Source: a virus (lineage: Duplodnaviria > Heunggongvirae > Uroviricota > Caudoviricetes). Taken from it: a stretch of 28,775 bases of DNA. Where the stretch lies: positions 1-28,775 of the IMG/VR virus record IMGVR_UViG_2778261515_000018. One strand, given 5' to 3'. Shown one piece after another: positions 6,633 to 23,718 of the stretch (position 1 is its first letter; the number at the start of each line of letters is the position of its first letter). The position numbers and the translations under genes are program-made. The notes below the pieces were generated by a model. The model ran no database searches and was not told where the DNA came from. It worked only from the letters and a program-made list of their open reading frames with translations.

Positions 6633-6751
6633 GATATTTTCCTCATGTGAAATGGCTTTGGTGGTAATGCGCCAGATGCTGATCTTCTGGTTGCTGTCGT
6701 TGCTGCTGCAATTCACATCACCGCCAAACCCATCTCGTTTGGTATCTGTTT

Positions 6752-6786: not shown

Positions 6787-6831
6787 TGCCAATCTGTTCC
6801 GTTTGGCTTCCAGCTTCCTGCTGATGTGTTT

Positions 6832-6894: not shown

Positions 6895-7043
6895 ATCTGT
6901 ATGTTTTTTATATGGATTTATTTTTTGCAGGGGTGAATTGTTAGGTAGGTGAGGGATCAGAATTGCACTGTTTAGCAAGTTGTATCTATTAGTTTTCCAA
7001 TAAATACAAATGGTTATGTGTTGTTGGGAAAGGGGAGCGAGAG

Positions 7044-7071
7044 GCAAAGAAAACCCGGCGCTGAGGCCGGG
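7044..7071 (-). terminator. t_imm-like intrinsic terminator ending the cI operon
   Basis: Minus-strand RNA CCCGGC CUCAGC GCCGGG followed by UUUUCUUUG; matches the lambda t_imm sequence as recalled. Confidence 0.75.
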
Positions 7072-7085
7072 TTGTGAGGAATTAA

Positions 7086-7271
7086 TTACAGAGCAAAGAG
7101 ATCATGCATTAGGTTGCTGTTCATCTGGTGGTTGAATTGATACGGCTCCAATTCCTTCTTGATCTCGTTCAGGTGTTGTTCCGCTTTTTTTGCCAGATCG
7201 TGACCTTCTTGGATCTGGCTTTCCAACATCTTGTTGAGAATTTCCATCTCCGGTTGCAGATTCTTCGGCAT
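7086..7271 (-). CDS. Possible small overlapping ORF (61 aa) at the 3' end of the peptidase gene
   Basis: Alternative frame MPKNLQPEMEILNKMLESQIQEGHDLAKKAEQHLNEIKKELEPYQFNHQMNSNLMHDLFAL with GAGG about 9 nt upstream of ATG; could be a separate gene, a frameshift product or chance. Confidence 0.25.
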   Translation of the reverse strand: MPKNLQPEMEILNKMLESQIQEGHDLAKKAEQHLNEIKKELEPYQFNHQMNSNLMHDLFAL

Positions 7272-8103: not shown

Positions 8104-8218
8104 TCGTTAAACTCCCTGCTGTGGTTACGATGAATGTATTCATGTTGAAGCTAAGCTATAGCGGCTTGTCATCATCACCAATCTGGCGGAATTGACTGCT
8201 CATAAATCACAATTGGAA

Positions 8219-8935
<717 letters not shown>

Positions 8936-8942
8936 TTAAATC

Positions 8943-9008
8943 TATCACCGCAAGGGATAAATATCTAACACCGTGCGTGTTGACTATTTTACCTCTAGCG
9001 GTGATAAT
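8943..9008. promoter_or_regulatory. OR3-OR2-OR1 operators with divergent pRM (leftward) and pR (rightward)
   Basis: OR3 TATCACCGCAAGGGATA 8943..8959; OR2 TAACACCGTGCGTGTTG 8966..8982; OR1 TACCTCTAGCGGTGATA 8990..9006; pR -35 TTGACT 8980..8985 and -10 GATAAT 9003..9008 with 17-bp spacer. Confidence 0.9.
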
Positions 9009-9023
9009 GATTGCATGTACTAA

Positions 9024-9233
<210 letters not shown>

Positions 9234-9240
9234 GTAACAC

Positions 9241-9275
9241 CGCTCTTTATCAATCTGCACCGCCGACAACGCGGT
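9241..9275 (+). promoter_or_regulatory. nutR: nutR: boxA (9241..9249) and P22-type boxB (9259..9275)
   Basis: CGCTCTTTA followed by hairpin ACCGC-CGACAAC-GCGGT just downstream of cro; matches P22 nutR boxB as recalled. Confidence 0.75.
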
Positions 9276-9287
9276 AACTAATTAAGC

Positions 9288-9305
9288 ACTCATCGAAAGA
9301 TGAGT
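9288..9305 (+). other. GAAA-tetraloop hairpin in the tR1 position
   Basis: ACTCATC GAAA GATGAGT followed by moderately U-rich sequence, between nutR and cII; no clean U-run. Confidence 0.3.
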
Positions 9306-9329
9306 ATTAGTGATTATTTACCTATGGAA

Positions 9330-9362
9330 ATAGTAAGAAATGGAACAAACAAGTTACAGCAA
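9330..9362 (-). promoter_or_regulatory. pRE-like CII-activated promoter
   Basis: Minus strand TTGC-N6-TTGT (9362..9349), 13 nt, then TACTAT -10-like hexamer (9335..9330), overlapping the cII start with the same architecture as lambda pRE. Confidence 0.6.
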
Positions 9363-9639
9363 ACTATCACAGCGCGACGTTGATCGCGCTGAAACAGATT
9401 TACTCATCAACCTGTCAACGCTTACCCAGCGCGGTCTGGCAAAGATGATTGGTTGTCATGAATCGAAGATAAGCAGAACGGACTGGAGATTTATTGCTTC
9501 GGTCTTGTGTGCTTTCGGAATGGCATCAGACATCAGTCCGATTAGCAGGGCTTTTAAGTATGCGCTTGATGGACTCACCAATAAAAAACGCCCGGTGTGC
9601 AAGACCGAGCGTTCTGATCAAATACAAATGGAATTTTAA
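9340..9639 (+). CDS. cII: CII transcriptional activator
   Basis: Track ORF; C-terminus LTNKKRPVCKTERSDQIQMEF matches the lambda CII C-terminus as recalled; follows cro and nutR. Confidence 0.8.
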   Translation: MEQTSYSKLSQRDVDRAETDLLINLSTLTQRGLAKMIGCHESKISRTDWRFIASVLCAFGMASDISPISRAFKYALDGLTNKKRPVCKTERSDQIQMEF

Positions 9640-9661
9640 CAACATCCAACGAGGTAATTAT

Positions 9662-9934
9662 ATGCGAAACAAAGGCTTTAATCCACCTGATACACACAAA
9701 GAAGCTAAGCGTTTGCGCTTCCTTCGTTCCATTGATGAAAGAACTCAAATCTCTTTTGTGAAAGTTGCCAGAACTGAGCTTCTGAAGGCTGAGGCGAGGG
9801 CGTTGCTCCCGTCTCTACCAAAAGAGGAGGGATATACGTTCATTCCAAACGCATTTCTGGAAAAGCTGCTCAAAGAAGACATATCCGTAAGTCAGTTTAA
9901 CGATGTTCTTAAGGTCTTTCGTCAAGGCAGGTAG
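9662..9934 (+). CDS. Hypothetical protein (90 aa) between cII and the replication genes
   Basis: Internal ATG of track ORF 9494..9934 with GAGGT RBS 7 nt upstream. Confidence 0.55.
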   Translation: MRNKGFNPPDTHKEAKRLRFLRSIDERTQISFVKVARTELLKAEARALLPSLPKEEGYTFIPNAFLEKLLKEDISVSQFNDVLKVFRQGR

Positions 9935-9936
9935 TT

Positions 9937-10884
9937 ATGAGCAATACAGCAAAAATCTACGATTTCAGCGCCGCACACGAGCGCAGGAGCAACAGGATGG
10001 AGAACCAGAAAACTGGTTACATTCCGTTGTACCGGAGCATTCTGAAACAGTCATGGGCGAAAGATGTTTATCTTCGCACCCTGTGGGAAAACCTTCTCCT
10101 GAATGCCGCCAGAAAGCCATACAAAGCGAATTTCAAAGGTCATGAATGGCATCTGCAACCCGGTCAACTGGTTGTGACAGCAGCTGATTTAGGTCTTCAG
10201 TTATGCGACAGGCATGGCAAGCCGGCAAGCCGTGATCAGGTTGAGCGGATGCTTCAGGTTTTTGTGAAAGAGGGGATGATCACCATTGATGGAGAGAAGC
10301 AAAAAGGTCGTGTGATCACCATCACAAATTACCATGAATATGCTCAAAAAATGGACAATTCACCCGCACATGAAGCCGCACAAACAACCGCACATGATGC
10401 CGCACATGATGAAGCCAGTAATGGCGCGGCTTTCAGCGTACATGCCGCACATGAAAGCGCACATGAAGCCGCACAAACAACCGCACATCATGAACAAGAA
10501 GGTATTAACAAGAATATAAATAATACCCCCCTACCCCCCAATGGGGGAGGCGATGGGCAGGTTAAACATGAACGTCGCAAGGCAGAACGAATCGACTACG
10601 AATCCTTCCTGAACGCCTACAACACCGAAGTCGGTGACAGACTGCCACACGCTGTTGCGGTCAACGAGAAACGCAAACGCCGCCTGAAGAAAATCATCCC
10701 GCAACTGAAAACGCCAAACGTGGACGGTTTCAGAGCGTATGTCAGGGCGTTTGTACATCAGGCCAAGCCGTTTTACTTCGGAGACAACGACACTGGCTGG
10801 ACGGCAGATTTTGATTACCTGCTGAGGGAAGATTCGTTAACGGGAGTACGGGAAGGGAAGTTTGCAGACAGGGGGATAGCATGA
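9937..10884 (+). CDS. Replication initiator, O / P22 gp18-like (315 aa)
   Basis: Track ORF directly upstream of the helicase gene (ATGA overlap); contains the internal iteron array and A+T-rich tract typical of a lambdoid ori inside O. Confidence 0.75.
10363..10530. repeat. Origin-like iteron array plus A+T-rich tract inside the O-like gene
   Basis: Two clusters of about 4 direct repeats of CCGCACATGA / GCCGCACAAACAA (10363..10413 and 10444..10494), including a ~30-bp near-perfect direct repeat (10369..10399 vs 10463..10493), then AAGAATATAAATAATA and a C-run/G-run inverted repeat. Confidence 0.7.
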
Positions 10885-12257
10885 GACAGGATATCGAAGC
10901 GAGCGTTATCGGTGGCCTGCTGATTGGTGGATTAACACCAACTGCCAGTGACGTTCTGGCAACGCTGGAGCCGGAAGCGTTTTCAATTCCGCTCTACCGG
11001 AAAGCCTTCGAGGTTATCCGCAAGCAGGCGAGAAACAGAAACCTAATCGACGCGCTGATGGTTGCCGAGGCGTGCGGAGAGGAGCATTTCACGTCAATCC
11101 TGATGACCAGCAAAAACTGCCCGAGTGCCGCAAACCTGAAGGGATATGCCGGAATGGTCGCGGATAACTATCACCGCCGTCTGGTGCTGGAAATCATGGA
11201 TGAAATGCGTGAACCAATTCAGAGCGGAACCATCGACGCATCGAGTCAGGCGATGGATGAGCTTGTAAAGCGTCTCTCAGCCATCAGAAAGCCCCGTGAC
11301 GAGGTAAAACCTGTACGGTTAGGGGAAATCATTACTGACTACACTGACACGCTTGACAGGCGTCTGAGGAACGGAGAAGAGTCAGATACCCTGAAGACCG
11401 GAATCGAAGAACTTGATGCCATCACCGGAGGGATGAACGCGGAAGACCTGGTGATAATCGCTGCTCGTCCTGGTATGGGGAAAACCGAACTGGCGCTGAA
11501 GATTGCCGAAGGCGTTGCAAGCCGCGTTATTCCTGGTTCTGACGTCCGGCGCGGAGTATTGATTTTCTCAATGGAAATGAGCGCATTGCAGATTGCAGAG
11601 CGAAGCATTGCCAACGCCGGGAGGATGTCGGTTAGCGTACTGCGAAATCCTGCATCAATGGATGACGAGGGCTGGGCACGCGTTGCTAACGGCATGAATC
11701 AGCTTGCGGATTTGGATGTATGGGTAGTCGATGCATCGCGGTTATCGGTCGAGGAAATACGCTCAATCGCAGAACGGCACAAACAGGAAAATCCAAACCT
11801 GTCACTCATCATGGCGGATTATCTTGGCCTGATTGAGAAGCCGAAAGCAGACCGCAACGACCTCGCAATTGCTCACATCTCCGGAAGCCTGAAGGCGATG
11901 GCGAAAGACCTGAAAACACCGGTTATCTCCCTGAGTCAGCTTTCGCGCGATGTTGAGAAGCGACCAAACAAACGCCCGACAAACGCAGATTTGCGTGATT
12001 CAGGAAGCATTGAGCAGGACGCAGACTCAATCATCATGCTCTATCGGGAAGCGGTATATGACGAGAACAGTAGCGCCGCACCATTTGCTGAAATCATCGT
12101 GACGAAAAACCGTTTTGGCTCGCTTGGTACGGTTTACCAGCGGTTCTGCAACGGACACTTTGTGGCATGTGACCAGGATGAAGCCAGACAGATTTGCACA
12201 GCATCAAATGCACCTGCTGCGCGTGGCAGACGATATGCACAAGGGGCTGACGTATGA
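10881..12257 (+). CDS. Replicative DNA helicase, DnaB family (P22 gp12-like)
   Basis: Walker A ARPGMGKT, DnaB-like N-terminal domain and C-terminal RecA-fold motifs ([20 protein letters not shown]). Confidence 0.9.
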
Positions 12258-12282
12258 CCATCTACATCACTGAGCTAATAAC

Positions 12283-12314
12283 AGGCCTGCTGGTAATCGC
12301 AGGCCTTTTTATTT
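12283..12314 (+). terminator. tR2-like intrinsic terminator
   Basis: AGGCCTGC TGGTAATC GCAGGCCT followed by TTTTTATTT, between helicase and ninB. Confidence 0.7.
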
Positions 12315-12330
12315 GGGGGAGAGGGAAGTC

Positions 12331-12771
12331 ATGAAAAAACTAACCTTTGAAATTCGATCTCCAGCACATCAGCAAAACGCTATTCACGCAGTACAGCAAA
12401 TCCTTCCAGACCCAACCAAACCAATCGTAGTAACCATTCAGGAACGCAACCGCAGCTTAGACCAAAACAGGAAGCTATGGGCCTGCTTAGGTGACGTCTC
12501 TCGTCAGGTTGAATGGCATGGTCGCTGGCTGGATGCAGAAAGCTGGAAGTGCGTTTTTACAGCAGCATTAAAGCAGCAGGACGTTGTTCCTAACCTTGCC
12601 GGGAATGGCTTTGTGGTAATAGGCCAGTCAACCAGCAGGATGCGTGTAAGCGAATTTGCGGAGCTATTAGAGCTTATACAGGCATTCGGTACAGAGCGTG
12701 GCGTTAAGTGGTCAGACGAAGCGCGACTAGCTCTCGAATGGAAAGCGCGATGGGGAGATCGGGCTGCATGA
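12331..12771 (+). CDS. ninB: NinB (Orf) recombination mediator
   Basis: MKKLTFEIRSPAHQQNAIHAVQQILPDPTKPIVVTIQERNRSLDQNRKLWACLGD... near-identical to lambda NinB as recalled; track ORF is extended upstream. Confidence 0.9.
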   Translation: MKKLTFEIRSPAHQQNAIHAVQQILPDPTKPIVVTIQERNRSLDQNRKLWACLGDVSRQVEWHGRWLDAESWKCVFTAALKQQDVVPNLAGNGFVVIGQSTSRMRVSEFAELLELIQAFGTERGVKWSDEARLALEWKARWGDRAA

Positions 12772-13295
12772 CTATCAAATCAAATACGCCAGCACACGAC
12801 AAGGACTGCTGGCAAACGCCGCTTTGGCTTTTTGATGCACTGGATATTGAGTTTGGATTCTGGCTGGATTCAGCTGCGAGCGACAAAAACGCTCTGTGCG
12901 CTCACTGGCTAACTGAGGCTGACGACGCGCTAAATTCTGAGTGGATAAGCCACGGTGCAATCTGGAATAACCCACCGTACAGCAATATCAGGCCGTGGGT
13001 GGAAAAAGCCGCTGAGCAGTGCATACAACAGCGACAGACGGTAGTGATGCTTGTGCCAGAGGATATGTCAGTCGGATGGTTCAGCAAGGCTCTGGAGAGT
13101 GTCGACGAAGTTCGCATTATCACTGATGGACGGATTAATTTTATCGAACCATCGACGGGGCTGGAGAAGAAGGGAAACAGCAAAGGCTCCATGCTGCTGA
13201 TTTGGCGACCGTTTATCAGTCCTCGACGGATGTTTACTACCGTATCCAAAGCGGCATTGATGGCGATCGGGCAGGGCGTCAGGAGGGCGGCATGA
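12768..13295 (+). CDS. Phage DNA N6-adenine methyltransferase (Dam-like)
   Basis: NPPY catalytic motif (IWNNPPYSN); start overlaps ninB stop (ATGA). Confidence 0.8.
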
Positions 13296-13468
13296 GGCGA
13301 CAGCGACGAAGTTTCACCGACATCATCTGCGAAAACTGCAAATACCTTCCAACGAAACGCTCCAGAAATAAACGCAAGCCAATCCCAAAAGAATCTGACG
13401 TAAAAACCTTCAACTACACGGCTCACCTGTGGGATATCCGGTGGCTAAGACATCGTGCGAGGAAATGA
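13292..13468 (+). CDS. ninE: NinE
   Basis: [58 protein letters not shown] matches lambda NinE as recalled; ATGA overlap with the MTase stop. Confidence 0.8.
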
Positions 13469-13470
13469 CA

Positions 13471-13830
13471 ATGGATTATTCACAGTTAAGTGATTTTGAA
13501 ATTAACGTGGCGGTATTCGAAGCCATTCATAACGGATCACCGGATTACAAAGAAGGTGAGAATGGCGATATGGTGTTTGTCTCATTTGAGGGAGACATTG
13601 TAAACGGAGACGCAGTTGAAGTAGAAGTTGAGCGCGGATCATTTAACCCATGCGTAAACCCAGCAGACGCATGGCCGATTATTGAAAAATACAGGATTAG
13701 CATTATCAATCTCGATGAAGACGAGTGGGGTGCACGCGGTGTGGCCTACTGTAAATCTAAGCGAGCTATACATGAAAATCCCCTCCGCGCCGCCATGATT
13801 GTCTTTCTCATGATGCAGAGAATCCAATAA
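13471..13830 (+). CDS. Hypothetical nin-region protein (NinX-like, 119 aa)
   Basis: ATG at 13471 with GAGGAA 6 nt upstream; family assignment is memory-based and uncertain. Confidence 0.6.
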   Translation: MDYSQLSDFEINVAVFEAIHNGSPDYKEGENGDMVFVSFEGDIVNGDAVEVEVERGSFNPCVNPADAWPIIEKYRISIINLDEDEWGARGVAYCKSKRAIHENPLRAAMIVFLMMQRIQ

Positions 13831-14006
13831 TGCTTAGCCCATCCCAATCCCTTCAATACCAGAAAGAAAGCGTCGAGCGAGCTTTAACGTGCGCTAACTG
13901 CGGTCAGAAGCTGCATGTGCTGGAAGTTCACGTGTGCTCCGATTGCTGCGCAGAACTGATGAGCGATCCGAATAGCTCAATGTACGAGGAAGAAGACGAT
14001 GAATGA
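13830..14006 (+). CDS. ninF: NinF (58 aa, Cys-rich)
   Basis: Hand-translated MLSPSQSLQYQKESVERALTCANCGQKLHVLEVHVCSDCCAELMSDPNSSMYEEEDDE matches lambda NinF as recalled; below the track cutoff. Confidence 0.8.
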   Translation: MLSPSQSLQYQKESVERALTCANCGQKLHVLEVHVCSDCCAELMSDPNSSMYEEEDDE

Positions 14007-14721
14007 GTTAATAAATGGCAATGCCATCAAAATGACAAGCATTGAAATCGCTGAGTTGGTGGGAAGTCGTCCAGATAACGTAAAAATATCAATAGAGCGC
14101 CTGGCTAAATCTGGAGTTATTCAACTTCCTGCATTGCAGGTTTTCGAAAAAATCAATAACTTAGGACTGCGCCGTAGTGTCGAGGCTTACGTCTTCGAAG
14201 GCGAACAAGGCAAGCGCGACAGCATTATTGTCGTTGCCCAGTTGTCGCCGGAATTCACCGCTCGTCTTGTTGACCGTTGGCGAGAGCTTGAAGAAACTGC
14301 GGTTAATATCCCAAAAACGCTACCAGAAGCGTTGCGCCTTGCTGCTGACCTTGCTGAGCAGAAAATGCAACTGGAAAACCAGCTCGCAATTGCCGCACCT
14401 AAAGTTGAGTTTGCCGATCGCGTTGGCGAGGCCAGCGGAATTTTGATTGGAAACTTTGCAAAGGTTGTTGGAATTGGTCCAAACAAACTGTTTGCGTGGA
14501 TGCGCGATCACAAAATCCTTATTGCTTCAGGTTCCCGGCGCAATGTGCCAATGCAGGAATATATGGATCGCGGCTATTTCACAGTGAAAGAAACAGCGGT
14601 CAACACAAATCACGGAATACAGATATCGTTCACCACAAAAATCACCGGGCGTGGTCAACAGTGGCTGACCAGAAAGCTGCTCGATAACGGAATGCTGAAA
14701 GTAACAGGGGAGGCTGCTTAA
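13999..14721 (+). CDS. Rha-family regulator with KilA-C (antirepressor-like) C-terminal domain
   Basis: N-terminal Rha-like region and C-terminal KilAC-like region (AAPKVEFADRVGEASGILIGNFAKVVGIGPNKLFAWMRDHKIL...). Confidence 0.7.
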   Translation: MNELINGNAIKMTSIEIAELVGSRPDNVKISIERLAKSGVIQLPALQVFEKINNLGLRRSVEAYVFEGEQGKRDSIIVVAQLSPEFTARLVDRWRELEETAVNIPKTLPEALRLAADLAEQKMQLENQLAIAAPKVEFADRVGEASGILIGNFAKVVGIGPNKLFAWMRDHKILIASGSRRNVPMQEYMDRGYFTVKETAVNTNHGIQISFTTKITGRGQQWLTRKLLDNGMLKVTGEAA

Positions 14722-15011
14722 TGGCTAACCTACGCAAAGAAGCACGCGGCAGAGAATGCCAGGTACGTATTTACGGCGTATGCAATGGTAATCCTGAAAC
14801 TACAGTTCTGGCACATTACCGGATGGCTGGAATTTGCGGAACGGGAATGAAGCCTGACGACCTGATCGGCGCATGGGCTTGTAGCGCGTGTCACGATGAA
14901 ATCGACCGACGCACCCATAATCTCGACAACAAAGACGCCAGACTTTACCACCTCGAAGGCGTGATCAGGACGCAGGCGATACTGCTGAAGGAGGGGAAGA
15001 TTAAGCCATGA
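14721..15011 (+). CDS. DUF1364 (YbcO-like) Cys/His-rich protein, putative nuclease
   Basis: MANLRKEARGRECQVRIYGVCNGNPETTVLAHYRMAGICGTGMKPDDLIGAWACSACHDEIDRR... resembles DLP12 YbcO as recalled. Confidence 0.6.
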   Translation: MANLRKEARGRECQVRIYGVCNGNPETTVLAHYRMAGICGTGMKPDDLIGAWACSACHDEIDRRTHNLDNKDARLYHLEGVIRTQAILLKEGKIKP

Positions 15012-15370
15012 ACGAATATCAGTTTGTGCTTCCTTACCCGCCGTCGGTGAACACCTACTGGCGAAGACGGGGAAGCCAATACTACATCAGCGATAAAGGC
15101 CAGAAATACCGAAAAGACGTTCAGCAAATCATCCGCCAACTCAAGTTAGACATTTTCACCAAATCAAGACTCCGCATCAAAGTCATCGCAGACGTTCCAG
15201 ACTCCCGCCGCCGCGACCTCGATAACATCCTGAAGGGTTTACTCGACTCCCTTATCCACGCCGGATTTGCGGAAGACGACGAGCAATTCGATGACATTCG
15301 CGTAATTCGTGGCGTGAAAGTACCAGGCGGAAGGCTTGGAATAAAAATCACCGAACTGGAGAACGCATGA
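15008..15370 (+). CDS. rusA: RusA Holliday-junction resolvase
   Basis: 120 aa with RusA motifs (PDSRRRDLDNILKGLLDSL, GGRLGIKITELE); ATGA overlaps. Confidence 0.85.
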   Translation: MNEYQFVLPYPPSVNTYWRRRGSQYYISDKGQKYRKDVQQIIRQLKLDIFTKSRLRIKVIADVPDSRRRDLDNILKGLLDSLIHAGFAEDDEQFDDIRVIRGVKVPGGRLGIKITELENA

Positions 15371-15555
15371 ACGCCACAATTCAAACGATACCAGAGCTTC
15401 TTATCCAGACACGAGGCAATCAGACCGAAGTGGCAAGGATGCTTTCCTGCGCAAGAGGAACAGTGCTCAAGTACAACCGAGACAGCAAAGGCGAGCGTCA
15501 CGTAATAGTTAACGGCGTCCTGATGGTCAAACAGGGCAAGAGGGGAAGACGATGA
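15367..15555 (+). CDS. ninH: NinH-like small DNA-binding protein
   Basis: MNATIQTIPELLIQTRGNQTEVARMLSCARGTVLKYNRD... resembles lambda NinH as recalled. Confidence 0.7.
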   Translation: MNATIQTIPELLIQTRGNQTEVARMLSCARGTVLKYNRDSKGERHVIVNGVLMVKQGKRGRR

Positions 15556-16040
15556 GCATAAGAGAACTAAACCTCACCAAAGAACAGCACGATTGGCTGA
15601 ATGGCTGGCTTGAACTGTGGGGCGCATGGGTTTATTCAGGCCGCCTGGAAAAGCGCATGAGCAGCGTAATAGCGAAGTTCATGGAGAGCGTAGAGCCGGG
15701 AAGAGTTATGACAAGGCCAATGTGTAATGATGATGATGGAATGTTGATTTCTCAGGTCGTCGATTCCGTCATGTACATTGACAAGAAAGCCTTTGGAATC
15801 CTCCTCAGCTACTACGCTCATGGCTCTTCCAAGCACGCCATTGCATCTTACTATCATCGCGTCGCAAGACCTCGCAAGATGTTATGCCGTGGCGGCGGGC
15901 GCATTCAAAAACCATCGCTCGCAACCTGTCGACGGGAAGTTGACGAAATCCTTAATGCCTCGTTGTTTATGATTTACCCGGTTCTGGATAGTGCGTTTAA
16001 AAATCGGAAACGTGTAGAGAAAATTAAACATGTAGCATAG
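15552..16040 (+). CDS. Q: Late-gene antiterminator Q (non-lambda Q family, 162 aa)
   Basis: Last gene before tR' and the lysis cassette; WGAW...PMCNDDDGMLISQVV...YYAHG pattern consistent with the phage 82/21-type Q family as recalled. Confidence 0.65.
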   Translation: MSIRELNLTKEQHDWLNGWLELWGAWVYSGRLEKRMSSVIAKFMESVEPGRVMTRPMCNDDDGMLISQVVDSVMYIDKKAFGILLSYYAHGSSKHAIASYYHRVARPRKMLCRGGGRIQKPSLATCRREVDEILNASLFMIYPVLDSAFKNRKRVEKIKHVA

Positions 16041-16046
16041 AACGTG

Positions 16047-16081
16047 TTGACATCATTGAGCAAATGAGCAACACTATTGGC
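16047..16081 (+). promoter_or_regulatory. Candidate late promoter pR' / qut region
   Basis: TTGACA at 16047..16052 just downstream of Q and upstream of the terminator; no convincing -10 at canonical spacing, so position is approximate. Confidence 0.25.
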
Positions 16082-16085
16082 ATAA

Positions 16086-16132
16086 GCTGCCGTTAGTGAC
16101 TCTTAAGTTGCAACGGTGGCTTTTTTTGTTTG
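16086..16132 (+). terminator. tR' late terminator
   Basis: Stem GCUGCCGUU / AACGGUGGC (with G-U pairs), then UUUUUUUGUUUG; downstream sequence CACAACAGGTAAGAGCATTGAGTCG matches the lambda region just past tR' as recalled. Confidence 0.65.
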
Positions 16133-16410
16133 CACAACAGGTAAGAGCATTGAGTCGATAATCGTGAAGAGTCGGCGAGCCTGGTTAGCCAGTGCTCTTT
16201 CCGTTGTGGTGAATGCACAGGCTGATGTGCAAGGGCAAGAATCTTTCGCTGGATTCGGTGTGGCCACGTAGCCCGCTGTAGGCAGTTGCAGCAAACCGGA
16301 GATCAGCACCGGTCGCCACAATCCAAACTGAGCGTAGCCACTGGCTATCCTGAATTCATCAGTGATAGTTATGCTGCGGCCTTCTACACATGATCTTCGT
16401 GAAAGCGGGT

Positions 16411-16446
16411 GGCATGAGGTTGTTAGCGCAACCTCATGCCGTTTTG
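16411..16446 (+). other. Perfect 12-bp stem-loop in the late leader upstream of S
   Basis: GGCATGAGGTTG TTAGCG CAACCTCATGCC followed by GTTTTG; the equivalent lambda position has a hairpin with a different but still complementary stem as recalled. Confidence 0.5.
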
Positions 16447-16565
16447 CCCGTGCATATCGGTCACGAACAAATCTGATTACTAAACACAGTAGCCTGGATT
16501 TGTTCTATCAGTAATCGACCTTATTCCTAATTAAATAGAGCAAATCCCCTTATTGGGGGTAAGAC

Positions 16566-16889
16566 ATGAAGATGCCAGAAAAACATGACCTGTTAGCCGC
16601 CATTCTCGCGGCAAAGGAACAAGGCATCGGGGCAATCCTTGCGTTTGCAATGGCGTACCTTCGCGGCAGATATAATGGCGGTGCGTTTACAAAAACAGTA
16701 ATCGACGCAACGATGTGCGCCATTATCGCCTGGTTCATTCGTGACCTTCTCGACTTCGCCGGACTAAGTAGCAATCTCGCTTATATAACGAGCGTGTTCA
16801 TCGGCTACATCGGTACTGACTCGATTGGTTCGCTTATCAAACGCTTCGCTGCTAAAAAAGCCGGAGTAGAAGATGGTGGAAATCAATAA
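16566..16889 (+). CDS. S: Holin S (class I, dual-start S107/S105)
   Basis: [64 protein letters not shown]... essentially identical to lambda S as recalled. Confidence 0.95.
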
Positions 16890-17349
16890 TCAACGTAAGG
16901 CGTTCCTCGATATGCTGGCGTGGTCAGAGGGAACAGATAACGGACGACAGAAAACCAGAAATCACGGTTATGACGTCATTGTTGGCGGAGAGCTATTCAC
17001 TGATTACTCCGATCACCCTCGCAAACTTGTCACGCTAAACCCCAAACTCAAATCAACAGCAGCCGGACGTTACCAGCTTCTTTCCCGTTGGTGGGATGCT
17101 TACCGTAAGCAGCTTGGCCTGAAAGACTTCTCTCCCAAAAGCCAGGACGCTGTTGCGCTGCAGCAGATTAAGGAGCGTGGCGCTTTGCCGATGATTGATC
17201 GCGGTGATATCCGTCAGGCTATCGACCGTTGCAGCAATATATGGGCTTCACTGCCGGGCGCTGGTTATGGCCAGTTCGAGCATAAGGCTGACAGCCTGAT
17301 TGCAAAATTCAAAGAGGCTGGCGGAACGGTCAGAGAGATTGAGGTATGA
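16873..17349 (+). CDS. R: Endolysin R (lytic transglycosylase)
   Basis: 158 aa, matches lambda R as recalled ([51 protein letters not shown]...). Confidence 0.95.
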
Positions 17350-17813
17350 GCAGAGTCACCGCGATTATCTCCGCTCTGGTTATCTGCATCATCGTCTGCC
17401 TGTCATGGGCTGTTAATCATTACCGTGATAACGCCATCGCCTACAAAGAACAGCGCGATAAAAAAGTCAGTGAGCTGAAGCAGGCGACCGCCACCATTAC
17501 TGACATGCAGCAGCGCCAGCGTTCTGCTGATGCACTCGATGCTAAATACACGAAGGAGTTAGCTGATGCGAAAACTGAAAATGATGCTCTTCGGCGCAAG
17601 CTTGATAATGGTGGCAGGGTGCTCGTCAAAGGAAAATGCCCTGTGCCATCCTCAGCCGAAACCTCCAGCGCCTCCGGCATGGGCAATGATGCCACCGTCG
17701 AACTCTCTCCAGTTGCTGGACGAAACGTTCTCGGTGTCCGGGACGGAATTATCCGCGACCAAACAGCACTGAGAACGCTTCAGGAATACATCAGGACGCA
17801 ATGCCTTCGATGA
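17346..17813 (+). CDS. Rz: Rz i-spanin
   Basis: N-terminal TM segment and coiled-coil; N-terminus matches lambda Rz; contains embedded Rz1. Confidence 0.85.
17566..17772 (+). CDS. Rz1: Rz1 o-spanin lipoprotein (embedded in Rz, +1 frame)
   Basis: AAGGAG RBS inside Rz; signal peptide with lipobox (LIMVAGC), proline-rich mature part. Confidence 0.8.
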
Positions 17814-17987
17814 TAGCGATAATTTTACTCATCATCCTTCACATCTGGCTCTGTAGACAGGGTGGTGATCACTTCTGGAGTGAATCCAGATTAAACATCT
17901 CATTGCTGATGCTTGATATTGAGCATCTGGCGCGCGGTAAGGGGCTGCGTTGAGATAAGAGCCAGTTCATTACAAATACCAGGATTT

Positions 17988-18014
17988 AGCCTCGCATTTG
18001 CGGGGCTTTTTATT
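17988..18014 (+). terminator. Intrinsic terminator-like hairpin downstream of the lysis cassette
   Basis: AGCCUCGC AUUU GCGGGGCU followed by UUUUAUU. Confidence 0.45.
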
Positions 18015-18035
18015 CCCAACTGCATAGGTAATTTT

Positions 18036-18515
18036 ATGACCCAGCATATTGGCGTAAAACTGATTAACGCCTTTCCGATGACGAGACAGGCATATAACGA
18101 TTTTCGTGGCTGGCAGCTTCCTGCCGGAGAAAACGGCGAGGACGAAGGCTATCTGGTTGAATATCTGGATGGCGGAAAACCTAACACCGATCGCTTTGAT
18201 GGCTACGTTAGCTGGAGTCAAAAAGAAGTATTCGAAAAGGCTTATCGTCCGGTATCAGGGTTAAGTTTCGGCCTTGCCATGGAAGCGTTAAAACAGGGCA
18301 AAAGTTTGCAGCGGGCAGGATGGAATGGGAAAGACCAGTTTGTTTATCTCGTGAAAGGGGAAAAATTAGCGTCTGCGTTGGGTTATGGCTTTGGCGAATA
18401 TGTTGGCGAGCCAACTTTCAATGACACGCTTGTATTGAAAAACTCACAGAACCGCCTTGCTACATGGGTTCCATCCATTGGCGACCTGATGGCTGAAGAC
18501 TGGCAAATCATTTAA
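18036..18515 (+). CDS. Hypothetical phage protein (159 aa; positionally like P22 ORF201)
   Basis: Internal ATG of track ORF 17913..18515, placed after the upstream terminator; weak RBS. Confidence 0.55.
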   Translation: MTQHIGVKLINAFPMTRQAYNDFRGWQLPAGENGEDEGYLVEYLDGGKPNTDRFDGYVSWSQKEVFEKAYRPVSGLSFGLAMEALKQGKSLQRAGWNGKDQFVYLVKGEKLASALGYGFGEYVGEPTFNDTLVLKNSQNRLATWVPSIGDLMAEDWQII

Positions 18516-18748
18516 CCATGTAGGCATTACAAAGCCTATCTACGGGTGGGCTTTATAATGAAACCGGAATTTATTCTGGGTAACCAGTTACGGCAGTACA
18601 GCGAAACAACCCAAGCCAGAAAGTGGGGAAATAACACTGACAGCCACTGAAAGATGAACCTCCTGCCTTATGGCAAAAAAGATTCTTTGTGGTGGCGGAC
18701 TGATGGAAAGACATCCTAATCAAGCAACCACTCCACAGGGACATAATT

Positions 18749-19129
18749 ATGAACGACCAGCAAATCGAAAAAGAAATCGTTGAGAAAGGCAAAACGGCAC
18801 CGCGAATCACCCCGCAGCACATCGAAGACGTGATTAAAAGCGAGCATTACTTTACTGCTTATGATGGACGAAATGGTGCCATTTCCAGCAACGAATATTG
18901 TGGCAGAGAAAAACCAGAAGAAGGCGATCGTGATTTATCACCATTGAAGTTGCTCACTTTCTGCGTACTGGTGCTGAAGAATGGCTTCACCGTCACCGGA
19001 GAGAGTGCCTGTGCAAGCCCTGAAAATTTTGATGCAGAAATTGGTCGGAAGATTGCCCGGCAAAATGCTGTAAACAAAATCTGGATGCTCGAAGGTTACT
19101 TGCTGAAGCAGAAGCTAAGCGAACAGTAG
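18749..19129 (+). CDS. Hypothetical phage protein (126 aa)
   Basis: Track ORF with no competing ORF; located between lysis and terminase genes. Confidence 0.55.
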   Translation: MNDQQIEKEIVEKGKTAPRITPQHIEDVIKSEHYFTAYDGRNGAISSNEYCGREKPEEGDRDLSPLKLLTFCVLVLKNGFTVTGESACASPENFDAEIGRKIARQNAVNKIWMLEGYLLKQKLSEQ

Positions 19130-19232
19130 TTATTACAAAAGCCATTCCCTACAGAGTGGCTTTGATAATGGCTTATACCCTACACGGGATAACTTAACTG
19201 ATATCCCTTTTAACGGATAAACGGAGCCAACA

Positions 19233-19475
19233 ATGGCAGAGATTATTCCCATGACTGAAGAACAGAAATTCCAGCTAGAGATTTACAAACTGGTCATGAA
19301 CCAGAACGCAGCCGCAGAAGAAGCATTTCAGTTCATTGGCACTGACGAGCTGAAGCTTGAGCTATTCAAAATTCACTTCCAGTCAGGCGGCGCTAATTCA
19401 GATATCACGACCCGCACAATCGAAGCGGTGCGTAAATCGAAGGAAGCGTTAGACCTGTTCACTACCGGAGCATAA
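19233..19475 (+). CDS. Hypothetical phage protein (80 aa)
   Basis: Track ORF; GGAG-containing RBS region (AAACGGAGCCAACAATG). Confidence 0.55.
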   Translation: MAEIIPMTEEQKFQLEIYKLVMNQNAAAEEAFQFIGTDELKLELFKIHFQSGGANSDITTRTIEAVRKSKEALDLFTTGA

Positions 19476-19554
19476 ACATGGCAACTCAAGGTTTCGACAA
19501 CCCATCCAAATTCCGCGATGAATGGGATAAGCAAGCAGAAGGGAAATAATCAAT

Positions 19555-20043
19555 ATGGCAGCACCAAAGGGCAACCGATTTTGGGAGGCCCGCAGTAGTC
19601 ATGGGCGAAATCCTAAATTCGAATCGCCTGAGGCGCTGTGGGCTGCTTGTTGTGAATACTTCGAGTGGGCTGATGATAACCCGCTATGGGAGGGTAAGGT
19701 ATTTTCATATCAGGGAGAAATAATTAAGGCTAATGTCCCTAAGATGCGAGCCATGACTATTTCAGGATTGTGTACCTTCCTTGATATCACCAGGCAAACA
19801 TGGGGAACCTTCCGGTCAATGGAAGGTTTTTCTGACGTCACATCACGAGCGGAAGACATCATCTACGACCAGAAATTCTCTGGCGCAGCCGCTGACCTTC
19901 TCAACGCTAACATCATCGCCCGTGATTTGGGCCTCAAAGAGCAGTCGCAAGTTGAAGACGTGACACCTGATAAGGGAGATCGCGATAAGCGGCGCTCTCG
20001 TATCAAGGAGCTATTCAACCGTGGAACTGGACGCGATTCTTGA
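19555..20043 (+). CDS. Terminase small subunit, P22 gp3-like
   Basis: 162 aa beginning [38 protein letters not shown], matching P22 gp3 as recalled. Confidence 0.85.
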
Positions 20044-21517
20044 TAACCTGAGCGACGAAGAGCAAATCGAATTGCTCGAGCTACTCGAAGAAGAAGAGAA
20101 CTACCGGAACACACACCTGCTATATGAATTTACGCCATACAGCAAACAGCGTGAGTTCATCGACGCCGGACATGACTATCCAGAGCGATGTTTTATGGCT
20201 GGTAACCAGCTTGGTAAGTCATTTACTGGCGCTGCTGAAGTCGCGTTTCACCTTACCGGGCGTTATCCGGGAACAAAAGGCTATCCTGCTGATGGTAAAT
20301 ATGGCGGTGAGTGGAAAGGTAAGCGTTTCTATGAGCCTGTTGTCTTCTGGATTGGCGGCGAGACAAACGAGACTGTAACCAAAACGACTCAACGCATCCT
20401 GTGTGGTCGTATCGAAGAGAATGATGAGCCAGGCTACGGTTCCATACCTAAAGAAGACATCATTAGCTGGAAGAAGTCTCCTTTCTTTCCGAACCTTGTT
20501 GATCATCTTCTGGTTAAGCATCACACGGCTGATGGCGTTGAAGATGGCATTTCAATCTGCTACTTCAAACCATACTCGCAAGGCCGCGCTCGCTGGCAGG
20601 GTGACACAATCCACGGCGTGTGGTTTGACGAAGAGCCACCATACAGCATTTATGGCGAAGGTCTTACCCGTACCAACAAATACGGGCAATTCTCAATTCT
20701 GACGTTTACCCCGCTGATGGGGATGTCTGACGTTGTTACCAAGTTCCTGAAGAATCCCAGCAAGTCGCAGAAAGTGGTCAACATGACCATCTATGACGCT
20801 GAGCACTACACAGACGAACAGAAAGAGCAAATCATCGCATCCTATCCCGAGCATGAGAGAGAGGCGCGTGCTCGCGGTATTCCTACGATGGGTAGCGGTC
20901 GAATCTTCCAGATACCGGAAGAGACGATTAAGTGTCAGCCGTTCGAGTGTCCTGATCACTTCTACGTCATCAATGCAATGGACTTCGGATGGGATCACCC
21001 ACAGGCACATATCCAGCTTTGGTGGGATAAAGACGAGGACGTGATTTATCTTTCTCGCGTCTGGAAGGCCAAACAGAAGAAGGCGACAGAGGCATGGAGT
21101 GCTGTTAAAGCATGGAGCAAAAACACCCCTACGGCTTGGCCTCATGACGGGCATCAGCACGAAAAGGGAGGCGGCGCTCAGCTCAAGGAACAATACGCCG
21201 AAGCTGGGTTCGACATGTTGCCAGATCATGCAACATGGCCTGATGGAGGTAATGCGGTCGAACCCGGGATAGCAGAGATACGCGACATGATGCTCGACGG
21301 TCGTTTCAAGGTATTTAACACCTGCGAGCCATTCTTTGAAGAGTTTCGTCTGTATCACCGCGATGAGAACGGGAAGATCGTCAAGCTAAATGACGACATC
21401 CTTTCTGCTGTTCGCTATGGCTACATGATGAGGCGTTTTGCAATACAGATGCGAGACATCAAAGATCCTAAAGAGATTGATTACTCAAGCTACAACATAC
21501 CTTGCGGAGTTGGATGA
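20021..21517 (+). CDS. Terminase large subunit, P22 gp2-like
   Basis: 498 aa; GTG start preceded by AAGGAG; ATPase and nuclease domain signatures; overlaps the small subunit gene by 23 nt. Confidence 0.9.
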
Positions 21518-23718
21518 TGGCTGATGATAGAAAGATGACTGACTGGCATCGCAAGGTGCTGTGCAACTTTGATAATGCCTGGTCAGCAACGAAGGATATG
21601 CGTGAGCAGATTATTGAGGCTCAACGTTTCGTCCGGGTGTCCGGCGCACAGTGGGAAGGCAGCACAAACGCTGGTTACTCATTTGATGAAGGCAGGTTTG
21701 AGCATTACCCGCGCTTTGAACTGAATAAGATTGCCCGTGAATGTGATCGCATCATTGGCGAGTATCGACAGAATCGCATCAGCGTTAAATTCAGGCCTAA
21801 GGACGATAAGGCATCGGAAGCGTTAGCCGAAAAGATGAACGGCAAATTCCGCGCTGACTATCAGGAAACATCCGGTGGCGAAGCGTGTGATAACGCATTT
21901 GATGATGCTGTAACGGGCGGATTCGGTTGTTTCCGCATGTGTGCCGATTACGAAGATGAAATGGATCCGAGTAACGAGCAGCGACGCATCAGCCTTCTTC
22001 CTGTTTACGACCCAGCGACATGCGTCTTCTTTGATCAGGACAGCAAGCAATATGACCGCTCTGATGCTATGTGGGCTATGGAAATGTTCTCCATGACGCC
22101 CAAAGCGTTCGAGGCTGAATACCCTGATTCCACCGCGGCAAGCCTTTCTCGTGATAACACTGGCACTCAATATGACTGGTCAACGCCAGATGCCATCTAT
22201 GTTGGACGCTACTACGAAGTTCGCATAGAGAAGGTGAAGATCACGGCGTGGCGCAACCCTGTTAGCGGAGAAACGGCAATCTATGATGAAGAGCAAATAA
22301 AAGATATTGTCGACGAACTGACCGATGGTGCATTCGAACTGATTGGCGAGCGAACGGTGAAGAAGCGCCGCGTTTATTGCGGTCTTCTGTCTGGCGCTGA
22401 ATGGCTGGAAGAACCGAAGCGTATTCCGGGCGAACATATTCCTCTCATCCCGGTATATGGGCGTCGCTCATTTGTTGATAATCAGGAGCGAATTGAAGGA
22501 CACGCAGCAAAAGCGATGGATGCACAGCGTCTTGAGAACCTGATGGTTTCCATGATTGCAGATAACGCTACTCAGGCTGGCGGTGATGGCATTCCTGTAG
22601 TTGATGTTGACATGATTCCTGGTCCTCTCGCCACTCATTGGGCGGAGCGCAACAAAAAGCGCCCGGCGTTCCTGCCGATGGTCAGTCTGAAAAACAAAAA
22701 CGGAGATATTACTGCGCAGGCTCAGGTCAGCAGTTATACGCCTCCGACACAAATGCCTCCAGCTCTTGCCGGGCTATTGCAGTACACCGGAACGGCTATT
22801 CAGCAAATTACAGGTGCGTCGCAGCTTGAGAACATGCCGAGCAACGTCGCTACTGATACCGTTGATAGCATTTTTAACCGGATGGACACGCAGTCCTATA
22901 TCTACATGGACAACATGGCTAAATCTATGCGTCGCGCTGGCGTTGTGTGGCTTTCTATGGCGCGTGAAGTCTATGGCAGCGATACGCCGATGCGTATCGT
23001 TAATGAGGACGGCAGCGATGACGTGGCGCTGATGACTGGTGAAGTGGTTGACCGTCAGACAGGGCAGGTTATCGCGCTTAACGACCTTTCGCAGGGTAAC
23101 TATGAAGTGACTGTCGATGTCGGTCAGTCGTTCGCTACTCGCCGTGACGCAACGGTTAAGTCGTTACTTTCCATGCTGGCACTTATCCCACCAGGAACGC
23201 CGAAGCACGACCTTGTATCGTCGATGATTCTCGACAATATGGACGGCGAAGGGATGGACGACCTGAAAGAATACAACCGCAATCAGTTGCTTCTGTCTGG
23301 CGTTATCAAGCCGAGAACGCCTGAAGAACAGCAGATGGTTGAACAGGCGAAACAACAACAGGCCAGTCAGCCAGATCCGGCTATGGTTGCAGCGCAAGGT
23401 CAGCTTCTTGCTGGTCAGGCTGAATTGCAGAAAGCGCAGAACGAGCAGGCAGCCATTCAGGTTAAAGCATTCCAGGCACAGACGGATGCTCAGGTTGCAG
23501 CGGCAAATGTTGTGAAAATCCTCGCATCTGCCGATAGCCAGCAAAAATCTGATATCCGTGAGGCGCTGAAACTGCTCGGACAGTTCCAGCAACAGCAAGG
23601 AGATAATGCCCGTGCTGATGCAGAGCTTGTCCTGAAAAGTCAGGCGCAAGGCCATGCGCAGCGCATGGACATCAGCAGCATCCTGCAAAAATCAACTCAG
23701 CAACAACCACAGCAGTAA
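21514..23718 (+). CDS. Portal protein, P22 gp1-like
   Basis: About 734 aa; conserved blocks shared with P22 gp1 (RRVY, GEHIPL(I)PV(Y)G, PEEQQ...DPAMV(A)AQG, RMDI), Gln-rich C-terminal barrel region; start overlaps terminase stop. Confidence 0.9.
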   Translation: MMADDRKMTDWHRKVLCNFDNAWSATKDMREQIIEAQRFVRVSGAQWEGSTNAGYSFDEGRFEHYPRFELNKIARECDRIIGEYRQNRISVKFRPKDDKASEALAEKMNGKFRADYQETSGGEACDNAFDDAVTGGFGCFRMCADYEDEMDPSNEQRRISLLPVYDPATCVFFDQDSKQYDRSDAMWAMEMFSMTPKAFEAEYPDSTAASLSRDNTGTQYDWSTPDAIYVGRYYEVRIEKVKITAWRNPVSGETAIYDEEQIKDIVDELTDGAFELIGERTVKKRRVYCGLLSGAEWLEEPKRIPGEHIPLIPVYGRRSFVDNQERIEGHAAKAMDAQRLENLMVSMIADNATQAGGDGIPVVDVDMIPGPLATHWAERNKKRPAFLPMVSLKNKNGDITAQAQVSSYTPPTQMPPALAGLLQYTGTAIQQITGASQLENMPSNVATDTVDSIFNRMDTQSYIYMDNMAKSMRRAGVVWLSMAREVYGSDTPMRIVNEDGSDDVALMTGEVVDRQTGQVIALNDLSQGNYEVTVDVGQSFATRRDATVKSLLSMLALIPPGTPKHDLVSSMILDNMDGEGMDDLKEYNRNQLLLSGVIKPRTPEEQQMVEQAKQQQASQPDPAMVAAQGQLLAGQAELQKAQNEQAAIQVKAFQAQTDAQVAAANVVKILASADSQQKSDIREALKLLGQFQQQQGDNARADAELVLKSQAQGHAQRMDISSILQKSTQQQPQQ

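Follow-up and report, generated by a model that had tools for sequence, protein, structure and literature searches.

Two hairpins in the late region of a phage genome are probably RNase III processing sites of the kind carried by phage T7, which would also stabilize the 3′ ends of messages from accessory genes of the late operon. They lie in a stretch of 28 775 nt (IMG/VR record IMGVR_UViG_2778261515_000018), here called the window at its full length. Copy 1 (18523–18563) follows a gene for a Tad2-like (Thoeris anti-defence 2-like) protein and copy 2 (19129–19173) a gene of the N4 Gp49/Sf6 gene 66 family. By its sequence, the window is that of a P22-like phage: the region concerned matches, in mosaic pieces and at 96–98% identity, the Lederbergvirus members Huey, IME10, Sf6, HK620 and epsilon34. 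Both repeats occupy the slot between the lysis and packaging genes and are therefore inside the Q-dependent late operon. They belong to a family of which 79 distinct variants occur in P22-like, HK/mEp and Shiga toxin (Stx) phages and in Escherichia coli genomes.

Fold, strand and position of the hairpin family

A reading of the window from its sequence only had pointed to two similar elements just 3′ of consecutive open reading frames (ORFs), and both are found there. The core of copy 1 spans 18526–18560 (ATTACAAAGCC-12 nt-GGCTTTATAATG) and that of copy 2 spans 19132–19170 (ATTACAAAAGCCA-12 nt-TGGCTTTGATAATG); the stop codons, TAA at 18513–18515 and TAG at 19127–19129, confirm the position. 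The first base of copy 1 falls 8 nt past the stop of the Tad2-like gene, and base 1 of copy 2 is the final base of the stop of the Gp49-family gene. The pattern AAAGCC-N8–20-GGCTTT occurs exactly twice in the window, compared with 0.06 expected from shuffles. The stem of 6–7 bp and loop of 12 nt given by the sequence-only reading understate the fold. On the + strand, RNAfold predicts about 15–18 pairs with loops of 4–6 nt, energies of −18.8 and −20.6 kcal/mol and z-scores of −3.5 and −5.2 for copies 1 and 2, respectively; the − strand is weaker (−15 and −16 kcal/mol).

Each copy is a stem–loop of about 17 pairs, made of an A/U-rich lower stem (7 bp), a 2×2 CA/GA internal loop and an upper stem of 9–10 bp. 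In copy 1, which is of type A, the lower stem pairs 18525–18529 with 18556–18560, the internal loop opposes CA (18530–18531) to UA (18554–18555; GA in nearly all relatives), and the upper stem (18532–18540 with 18545–18553) carries the loop UACG (18541–18544). In copy 2, of type B, the corresponding parts are 19129–19135 with 19166–19172, CA (19136–19137) opposite GA (19164–19165), and 19138–19147 with 19154–19163, closed by the loop CCUACA (19148–19153). A covariance model built from these hairpins only, hereafter model R1, scores the two copies, both on the + strand, at 53.3 and 60.3 bits. No further full copy was found with it in the window, the next score (18.5 bits) belonging to copy 2 read on the opposite strand; a left arm without a partner lies at 17966–17976. 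Two weak matches, at 21545–21580 and 3838–3888 (E 0.03–0.2), one coding and one in the early region, are put down to chance. A search of positions 16000–20200 against Rfam (E ≤ 10) gave two chance-level matches, neither at a hairpin.

The conserved right-hand neighbour of the hairpins, a DUF2560 gene (Sf6 gp67/P22 orf80; 19233–19475, + strand), was used as an anchor for comparison. In 80 IMG/VR loci with essentially the same DUF2560 gene, one or two copies occur in each; every copy is on the + strand and at most about 770 nt upstream of that gene, with none elsewhere in the 4 kb on either side. The copies are 41–45 bases long (roughly 42 nt) and fall into four sequence types, A–D. The element is present in hundreds of related phages and prophages, contrary to what the sequence-only reading named as its refutation (no further copies and no conservation in relatives). 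The CTAC that had been singled out in the loop is not kept across the family.

The fold is supported by covariation. In 24 distinct copies, compared under the structure (((((((..((((((((((......))))))))))..)))))))., 95.3% of the cells are paired (31–50% for slid partners), six pairs are altered on both sides, and the covariation score was matched by none of 500 shuffles. An outer-core pattern scan followed by the covariance model enlarged this set to the 79 distinct hairpins. Across them the upper stem is almost wholly replaced yet remains paired, for example as AAAGCCAUUC/GAGUGGCUUU, AGCAGGCAUUC/GAGUGCCUGC or AAAGCGUCUC/GGGGCGCUU. The lower stem CCAUUA/UAAUGG is conserved in sequence, columns 4–6 are invariant, and the internal loop has CA on its 5′ side in 79/79 and GA on its 3′ side in 77/79 variants. 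As 47 of the 79 were gathered by a pattern fixing CCATTACA and GATAATGG, this apparent invariance of the core is inflated; in the sets collected free of that constraint (the DUF2560 loci and second copies found by the model) the core varies slightly (ATTGC, ATCAC, GACAAT, GATGATG), with compensation.

When two flank columns are excluded, the 79 variants hold 150 G·U cells and 11 A·C cells, an asymmetry to be expected where folding takes place in the sense-strand RNA or, at the least, in the + strand alone. Nearly all variants fold better as + than as − strand, with hairpin energies of −17 to −27 kcal/mol, and the copies are co-directional with the upstream Rz gene wherever Rz is recognized. 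This pattern of substitutions points to the sense-strand RNA as the folded species. Almost all copies lie on the sense strand in the interval between lysis and terminase genes, at or just past the stops of unrelated accessory genes. Of 67 distinct upstream contexts, 20 have a stop codon that ends on base 1 of the hairpin, and in another 21 the end of the stop lies at most 14 nt away; no ORF runs into the hairpin in any of them.

Likeness to the RNase III sites of T7

The 3′ arm GAGUGGCUUUGAUAAUG resembled T7 R1.1, which prompted an unfiltered search of the complete T7 genome with model R1 (ten matches at E ≤ 10). The top six include four on the + strand, at 5861–5884, 3105–3142, 1441–1465 and 36830–36853 (16.6, 15.5, 11.4 and 11.2 bits), just upstream of genes 1.1, 1, 0.5 and 18.5; we take these to be the RNase III sites R1.1, R1, R0.5 and R18.5. 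The hairpin at 5861–5884 has the GCAA tetraloop described for R1.1 substrates. In T7 the R0.5 and R18.5 stems likewise start at stop codons, those of gene 0.4 (ending at 1433) and gene 18 (ending at 36822). The T7 cleavage coordinates are reportedly (Dunn and Studier 1983) 890, 1468, 3138, 5887, 6450, 11203, 13892, 18563, 27281 and 36856. Four of these positions stand directly after CUUUAU and before GAU, and near variants occur at R18.5 (CUUUAU↓GGA, the arrow marking the reported position), R4.7 (CUUCAU↓GAA) and R6.5 (CUUUAC↓GAU), so that a consistent context at most of them supports these coordinates.

The comparison also holds in reverse. A reciprocal covariance model (model R2), built from seven T7 sites only and run over both strands of the window (57.5 kb), has its best two matches at 18528–18565 (17.3 bits, E 0.039) and 19130–19174 (17.2 bits, E 0.041), and it ranks the type-C copies of P22 and epsilon34 first. 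The next + strand match of model R2 in the window, 15945–15980 (GAAAUCCUUAA...UUUAUGAUUUACC; 13.3 bits, E 0.57), lies near the 3′ end of the ORF 15552–16040, upstream of the late leader. In a control over the Q-to-cos region of lambda, model R1 found nothing above 9.7 bits.

The likeness is closest in the upper stem. Copy 2 (AAAGCCAUUC, loop CCUACA, GAGUGGCUUU) and T7 R1.1 (AAGGUCAUUC, loop GCAA, GAGUGGCCUU) are identical at 8/10 positions of the 5′ arm and 9/10 of the 3′ arm, and copy 1 (AAGCCUAUCU, loop AC, GGGUGGGCUU) is nearly identical to T7 R1 (CAGGUCAUCU, loop GC, GGGUGGCCUG). The 3′ context reads CUUUAU↓GAU in T7 and CUUUGAU↓AAU in the element. Like the T7 R-sites, the hairpins are intercistronic, belong to the sense strand of long polycistronic phage transcripts and sit at or just past stop codons; they extend over some two turns of helix, in which an internal loop separates the A/U-rich lower stem from an upper stem of 9–10 bp. 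They also share with the T7 sites the U·G at distal-box position 2, the A–U pairs of the proximal box, the spacing between the boxes and the standing of reciprocal best covariance-model matches.

RNase III substrates typically comprise two helical turns, and an internal loop can restrict cutting to a single strand, so that a hairpin remains to protect the 3′ end (Pertzev & Nicholson 2006, PMC1540722). With 17 pairs and the 2×2 internal loop, the element offers 19 stacked positions, which agrees with a helix of about two turns. In the same source the distal box is UA/UG, with the U·G of position 2 stringent, and GC or CG in the proximal box blocks binding at position 2 and catalysis at position 4 (PMC1540722). 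Pairs 7:32 to 17:22 of the uR1.1 substrate were mapped onto the model columns, the mapping being our own alignment to the uR1.1 numbering. Distal-box position 2 (columns 17:28) is then U·G in 65/79 variants and position 1 (columns 18:27) U–A in 34/79; proximal-box position 2 (columns 11:34) is A–U in 71/79, and position 4 (columns 9/36), which is GC or CG in none, is an A·G mismatch in 77/79. In copy 2 the U·G wobble corresponds to 19145:19156 and the A–U pair of proximal-box position 2 to 19139:19162. The two boxes are 8 bp apart, which is the R1.1 spacing. The family so unites what is looked for in an RNase III site, namely a sense-strand hairpin of about two turns, a distal U·G, a proximal box and likeness to proven sites.

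From these features a course of events can be proposed. Transcription from the late promoter, antiterminated by Q, would pass the lysis genes and the accessory cassettes into the packaging and head genes, and each hairpin would fold in the sense-strand late mRNA. RNase III would bind through the distal box near the loop (U–A or C–G, then U·G) and the A–U-rich proximal box at the base of the upper stem, and would cut about 11 bp from the loop. The predicted 3′-side cut falls between columns 38 and 39 (GAU↓AAUGG), i.e. between 19166 and 19167 in copy 2 and between 18556 and 18557 in copy 1. A possible 5′-side cut falls between columns 8 and 9 (CAUUAC↓A), i.e. between 19136 and 19137 and between 18530 and 18531. 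The ‘−10 hexamer’ of the sequence-only reading therefore spans the predicted cleavage site. The upstream message would be left with a hairpin that blocks 3′ exonucleases, and the downstream message would be released. Among the roles offered by that reading, RNA processing is thus the favoured one, on the strength of covariation, sense-strand G·U pairs and the reciprocal model matches to T7 sites, with cleavage itself as a prediction. Its ‘protein-binding site’ is loosely right, because RNase III is a protein predicted to bind this RNA.

Several observations weigh against RNase III processing. Distal-box position 1 mostly differs from the published rule (C–G in 44/79), though T7 R1 differs likewise; proximal position 2 is GC or CG in 7/79 variants and position 3 is G–C in 17/79. 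The internal loop sits at the predicted scissile bond but is a symmetric 2×2 CA/GA loop, whereas those of the T7 sites are asymmetric, of about 4×5. The core AUUA-CA...GA-UAAU is conserved beyond the known needs of RNase III and could have a different or additional binding partner. The cross-family scores are individually marginal (E about 0.04–1.6), their weight lying in location, and the most divergent upper-stem types are missed by model R2. The feature tables of V01146 and NC_001604 leave the T7 RNase III sites unlisted; the T7 coordinates, and with them the names given here to the T7 sites, are supported by the internal consistency of the motif only. In the papers searched, no transcript-end data were found for element-carrying phages.

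Other differences from T7 concern the setting. The lower stem CCAUUA/UAAUGG is not that of T7, and the element occurs once or twice per genome at a single hypervariable locus, unlike the T7 R-sites (R0.3, R0.5, R1, R1.1, R1.3, R4.7, R18.5; R1.1 having been dissected in Nicholson’s laboratory), which are experimentally proven, whereas cleavage of the element is predicted from sequence and structure. The carriers are temperate lambda-like phages transcribed by host RNA polymerase under Q antitermination, again unlike T7. Another precedent is the leader of the lambda late transcript, which is reportedly processed by RNase III (Daniels and colleagues, in Virology, 1988). It shares with the present proposal the action of host RNase III on Q-dependent late RNA of a lambda-like phage; the lambda sites differ in lying upstream of the lysis genes, and lambda is without the present element between Q and cos.

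Mosaic joints and competing explanations

The hairpin coincides with joints of phage mosaicism. Its 5′ edge adjoins at least 55 (55–70) distinct sequences and its 3′ edge at least four. In loci L028 and L062 and in Stx phage 1717, a type-A body is fused to the leader that usually follows types B and C. In locus L161 (reverse strand, hairpin 5734–5774), a 65-aa ORF (MTVVLTAKQIEDLA...) and its hairpin stand among head-assembly genes. Homology with locus L113, where the copy is on the lysis side, is confined to ORF and hairpin, running from the ORF start (−201) to position 39 of the 41 of the element, 2 nt short of the hairpin end. A small hairpin upstream of the L161 insert (CAAAGCAC-TAATAA-GTGCTTTG) is similar by eye; it was missed by the model and is not counted.

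The window itself shows such a joint. The 9-nt direct repeat CATTACAAA, at 17968–17976 and 18525–18533, brackets an intrinsic terminator and the Tad2-like gene, and its first copy is a left arm without a right arm. It is part of the orphan arm TTCATTACAAA (17966–17976, + strand), just 3′ of a gp65-like ORF. In loci of the L081 type, which lack the cassette, an intact hairpin (GAGATAAGAGCCAG joined to TTCATTACAAAGCCTATC...) stands at the position of the orphan arm; in the window the orphan 11 nt continue into TACCAGG and then the terminator. The fetched loci contain 44 instances of this combination of half-arm and terminator, 19 of them with an intact hairpin directly after. Being conserved amid variable flanks and moving with its gene, the element appears to double as a cassette-exchange joint; in the RNase III proposal its secondary role would be that of a homology patch for swaps of accessory cassettes between lambda-like phages.

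A stronger version, which we regard as a tentative minority view, sees in the hairpin a portable 3′ terminus for a class of mobile accessory-gene cassettes of lambda-like phages. Hairpins or half-hairpins already in place would capture units of gene plus hairpin, through recombination or template switching at a folded arm, and the captured gene would thereby gain a ready-made, RNase III-processed and stabilized message. The result would be a cassette array like those of attC sites or of the stem–loops termed PeSLs, 3′ of the lysis genes, in a slot that takes anti-defence (Tad2-like, Gp49/gp66), nuclease (HNH, GIY-YIG) and Rha/KilA-N genes. The 55–70 left contexts, the 20 of 67 stops on base 1, the 9-nt repeat and the L161 unit are all compatible with it.

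Three known systems bear on this version. The PeSLs (promoter-early stem–loops) of T4-type phages are short conserved intergenic stem–loop motifs that flank variable ORFs in hyperplastic regions and serve as exchange points between otherwise unrelated sequences (Arbiol et al. 2010, PMC2839356; Comeau et al. 2014, PMC4122927). The element is likewise a repeated intergenic stem–loop with variable ORFs and indel or replacement joints. PeSLs are composites of a terminator and an early promoter, belong to another phage group, have an unrelated sequence and are numerous in each genome; the element, present once or twice, has no promoter or terminator features in our scan. By analogy, it may be regarded as functionally comparable to PeSLs, minus promoter and terminator. 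The joints also recall morons, with which they share accessory genes between conserved late genes and joints at gene boundaries. The element differs from moron ends in being a hairpin that has RNase III-site features and is not a terminator, and the scan detected no promoter with it. A moron is defined by a promoter and a terminator of its own. Mosaic joints at gene boundaries and proposed boundary linkers are also said to figure, with morons, in the work of Juhala et al. in 2000 and, for HK620, of Clark et al. in 2001. Integron attC sites are, like the element, imperfect hairpins at cassette 3′ ends; in both, conserved inverted cores on the outside enclose a centre that varies, and a single strand is the functional one. 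The fold of the element differs in having no extrahelical (bulged) bases and resembles an RNA-processing site, and cassette excision would be hypothetical. Inspection of flanking ORFs revealed neither an IntI-type integrase nor an attI site, and no search aimed at them was made in the window or in related loci.

The same joints would be expected if the sequence acted as DNA only, as a linker for crossover of the Erf or Red type, with the hairpin incidental or kept by palindrome-correcting replication errors. The hairpin is indeed a conserved island between flanks that vary on both sides, and the type-A bodies on B/C-type leaders, the L161 unit with its homology to L113 ending near the hairpin end and the repeat on either side of cassette 1 all fit such a linker. 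Yet a homology patch has no need of pairing, which here survives wholesale replacement of the upper stem. The mismatches are almost only sense-strand G·U (150 versus 11), which DNA-level processes would not favour, and the U·G wobble is retained in 65/79 variants instead of being ‘corrected’. The likeness to T7 RNase III sites would also be left unexplained. We therefore consider a purely DNA-level linker unlikely, although linkage of this sort is compatible with RNase III processing as a secondary consequence.

No better placed is the idea that the hairpin serves another host or phage RNA-binding factor, such as a regulator of translation or stability that would recognize the lower stem and the CA/GA loop, or is a passive barrier to exonucleases that is never cleaved; we give it little weight. 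The near-invariance of AUUA-CA...GA-UAAU (CA 79/79, GA 77/79), stricter than the published RNase III rules, would suit a dedicated factor, but it is inflated by the 47/79 pattern-collected variants and the unconstrained copies vary slightly. Besides host proteins, no factor is common to all carriers, their flanking genes being unrelated. As for a passive barrier, the hairpins have the stability (−17 to −27 kcal/mol) and the location right at stop codons of a 3′-end protector; such a barrier would need neither a U·G wobble at a fixed distance nor likeness to T7 sites.

That the hairpins terminate transcription of the accessory genes, in the manner of a moron, is improbable. Their location 3′ of genes fits, the sequence just after type-B copies is weakly U-rich (CUUAUAC or UUUAUAC), and the copy in Escherichia phage Ayreon is so annotated (MF807953, 43978–44023; locus L084, 1998–2043). 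However, there is no U-tract: GAAACCGGAA follows copy 1 and GGCUUAUACCC copy 2, and the long stem with its A/U-rich base is unlike E. coli intrinsic terminators. The terminator scan calls neither hairpin but a canonical intrinsic terminator at 17988–18007 plus T5 (17988–18012, + strand; 8 pairs, 6 of them GC, tail TTTTATTCCC), which is distinct from the hairpin family and lies upstream of cassette 1; its counterpart in the epsilon34 record carries the label of a Rho-independent terminator. In many phages a canonical GC stem with T6–7 stands directly upstream of the hairpin, and a second terminator would be redundant there. The Ayreon label looks like an artefact of hairpin-based terminator finders.

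The leading idea of the sequence-only reading, a recurring promoter with TATAAT/GATAAT as the −10 box of downstream genes, can be set aside as highly improbable: GATAAT is well conserved and copy 1 has a perfect TATAAT, but the + strand scan makes no sigma-70-like call at either copy, there is no −35 at 16–18 nt and no TGn extension, the hexamer forms the 3′ side of the lower stem and changes in concert with its partner on the 5′ side (A7–U38 to G7–C38; GAUAAU to GACAAU), its T7 equivalent UUUAUGAU is an RNase III cleavage context, the late operon already transcribes the region, and the conserved left arm and compensatory upper stem would go unexplained.

Three further candidates were rejected. 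A pseudoknot between an upstream GTAG and the loop CTAC is contradicted by the absence of CTAC in types C and D, by a GTAG that is mostly a stop codon plus one base, and by partners placed at opposite ends of a 19-bp helix. Repetitive extragenic palindromic (REP) elements or bacterial interspersed mosaic elements (BIMEs) do not match a hairpin found at 1–2 copies per prophage and 1–6 per genome, always in prophage late regions and not in hundreds of chromosomal copies. The Pas/STnc100 small RNAs of prophages lie upstream of lysis genes and are a different element. GTAG does precede many copies (e.g. 18520–18523 and 19126–19129), in about 8 of 15 independent contexts, a modest enrichment. REP elements carry a 5′ GTAG recognized by the REP-associated tyrosine transposase (RAYT). 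The 5′ GTAG of the hairpins recalls this REP foot, yet it may reflect stop-codon usage alone, TAG being the upstream stop in several cases.

Gene order, distribution and significance

All genes of the region are on the + strand. Holin (16566–16889), endolysin (16873–17349) and Rz (17346–17813) genes are followed by the gp65-like ORF of 50 aa (17801–17953), the orphan arm and the terminator. Cassette 1 (18036–18515) encodes the 159-aa Tad2-like protein (PF11195, E 1.1e-21), whose Tad2-like domain comprises residues 77–159; the homologue in phage Huey is annotated ‘anti-CRISPR protein’. Copy 1 of the hairpin is separated by a conserved non-coding spacer (18564–18748) from cassette 2 (18749–19129), which encodes the 126-aa protein of the N4 Gp49/Sf6 gene 66 family (PF13876, E 3.4e-35). 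After copy 2 come a conserved leader (19174–19232), the DUF2560 gene and then the small terminase gene (19555–20043). Two inverted repeats precede the holin gene, a perfect one of 12 bp (GGCATGAGGTTG-6 nt-CAACCTCATGCC, 16411–16440) and an imperfect one of 13 nt (16496–16547); they presumably belong to the leader of the late promoter and to its terminator.

In relatives, the interval from Rz to DUF2560 varies from 317 to >1600 nt, with the hairpin as its fixed point, and holds Rha-like, KilA-N, GIY-YIG, Tad2-like and Gp49-family ORFs and several unknowns in many combinations. With Tad2-like, Gp49/gp66, HNH, GIY-YIG, Rha and KilA-N genes in relatives, the slot between lysis and terminase genes is an apparent hot spot of anti-defence and accessory genes. 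In distant carriers the lysis genes are again followed by one or more accessory ORFs, the hairpin, one or more further accessory ORFs, in some cases another hairpin, and then small terminases of several unrelated types.

The non-coding stretches next to the hairpins are conserved as well. A spacer of about 155–185 nt (e.g. 3747–3899 in L055) follows type-A hairpins in many phages and is flanked by two hairpins where the second cassette is absent. It was treated as non-coding because the starts or frames of its small ORFs (MNLLPYGKK... and MAKKILCGG...) are broken in relatives, by ATG to ATA in L040, ATG to AAG in L039 and an extra A in L081 and L040. If both flanking hairpins were cut by RNase III, the spacer would become a discrete RNA of about 200 nt. 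About 50 nt of the leader (TATACCCTACACGGGATAACTTAACTGATATCCCTTTTAACGGATAAA) also stand 3′ of the hairpin in siphoviral and Stx phages that have no DUF2560. The part at 19174–19222 is kept in Ayreon and Stx2 phage 1717 despite unrelated downstream genes and contains an inverted repeat GGGATA...TATCCC plus repeated GGATAA motifs; mEp043 and P22 have a different leader sequence with a similar GGATA/TATCC theme in the same place.

The 48-nt type-A element matched 147 phage records, comprising P22-like podoviruses, HK and mEp siphoviruses, Stx2 phages and a few Klebsiella and Enterobacter phages, and the match was 3′ of lysis genes in every record inspected. P22 has a single copy (NC_002371, 40309–40350). 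The hairpin with its 3′ leader is present in 2593 of 5426 complete E. coli genomes (∼48%), in up to six places; the copy in a prophage of EDL933 (NZ_CP120944, 3761742–3761834) lies between a gp65-like ORF and the terminase genes. Searches of lambda and of the K-12 prophage DLP12 found no copy. A literature search by sequence strings and for stem–loops at P22-like mosaic boundaries returned nothing relevant and no description of the element, and it goes unmentioned in the epsilon34 paper and in a paper on Salmonella prophage transcriptomes.

The element has so far been called a terminator or ignored, and its annotation would be corrected if the prediction of RNase III processing holds. No open paradigm is overturned, this kind of element being well known from T7. 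If the prediction is true, host RNase III would, as in T7, cleave the late mRNA of P22-like and many other lambda-like phages at defined points that separate lysis from packaging genes; such phages reside as prophages in roughly half of the complete E. coli genomes. Accessory genes, such as the Tad2-like anti-defence candidate, would then obtain stabilized messages of their own, uncoupled from the lysis and head genes. The signature CCAUUACA-stem-GAUAAUGG provides a searchable marker of the hypervariable slot and a handle for anti-defence genes. Finally, the hairpin would be a functional RNA element that doubles as a recombination linker in phage mosaicism.

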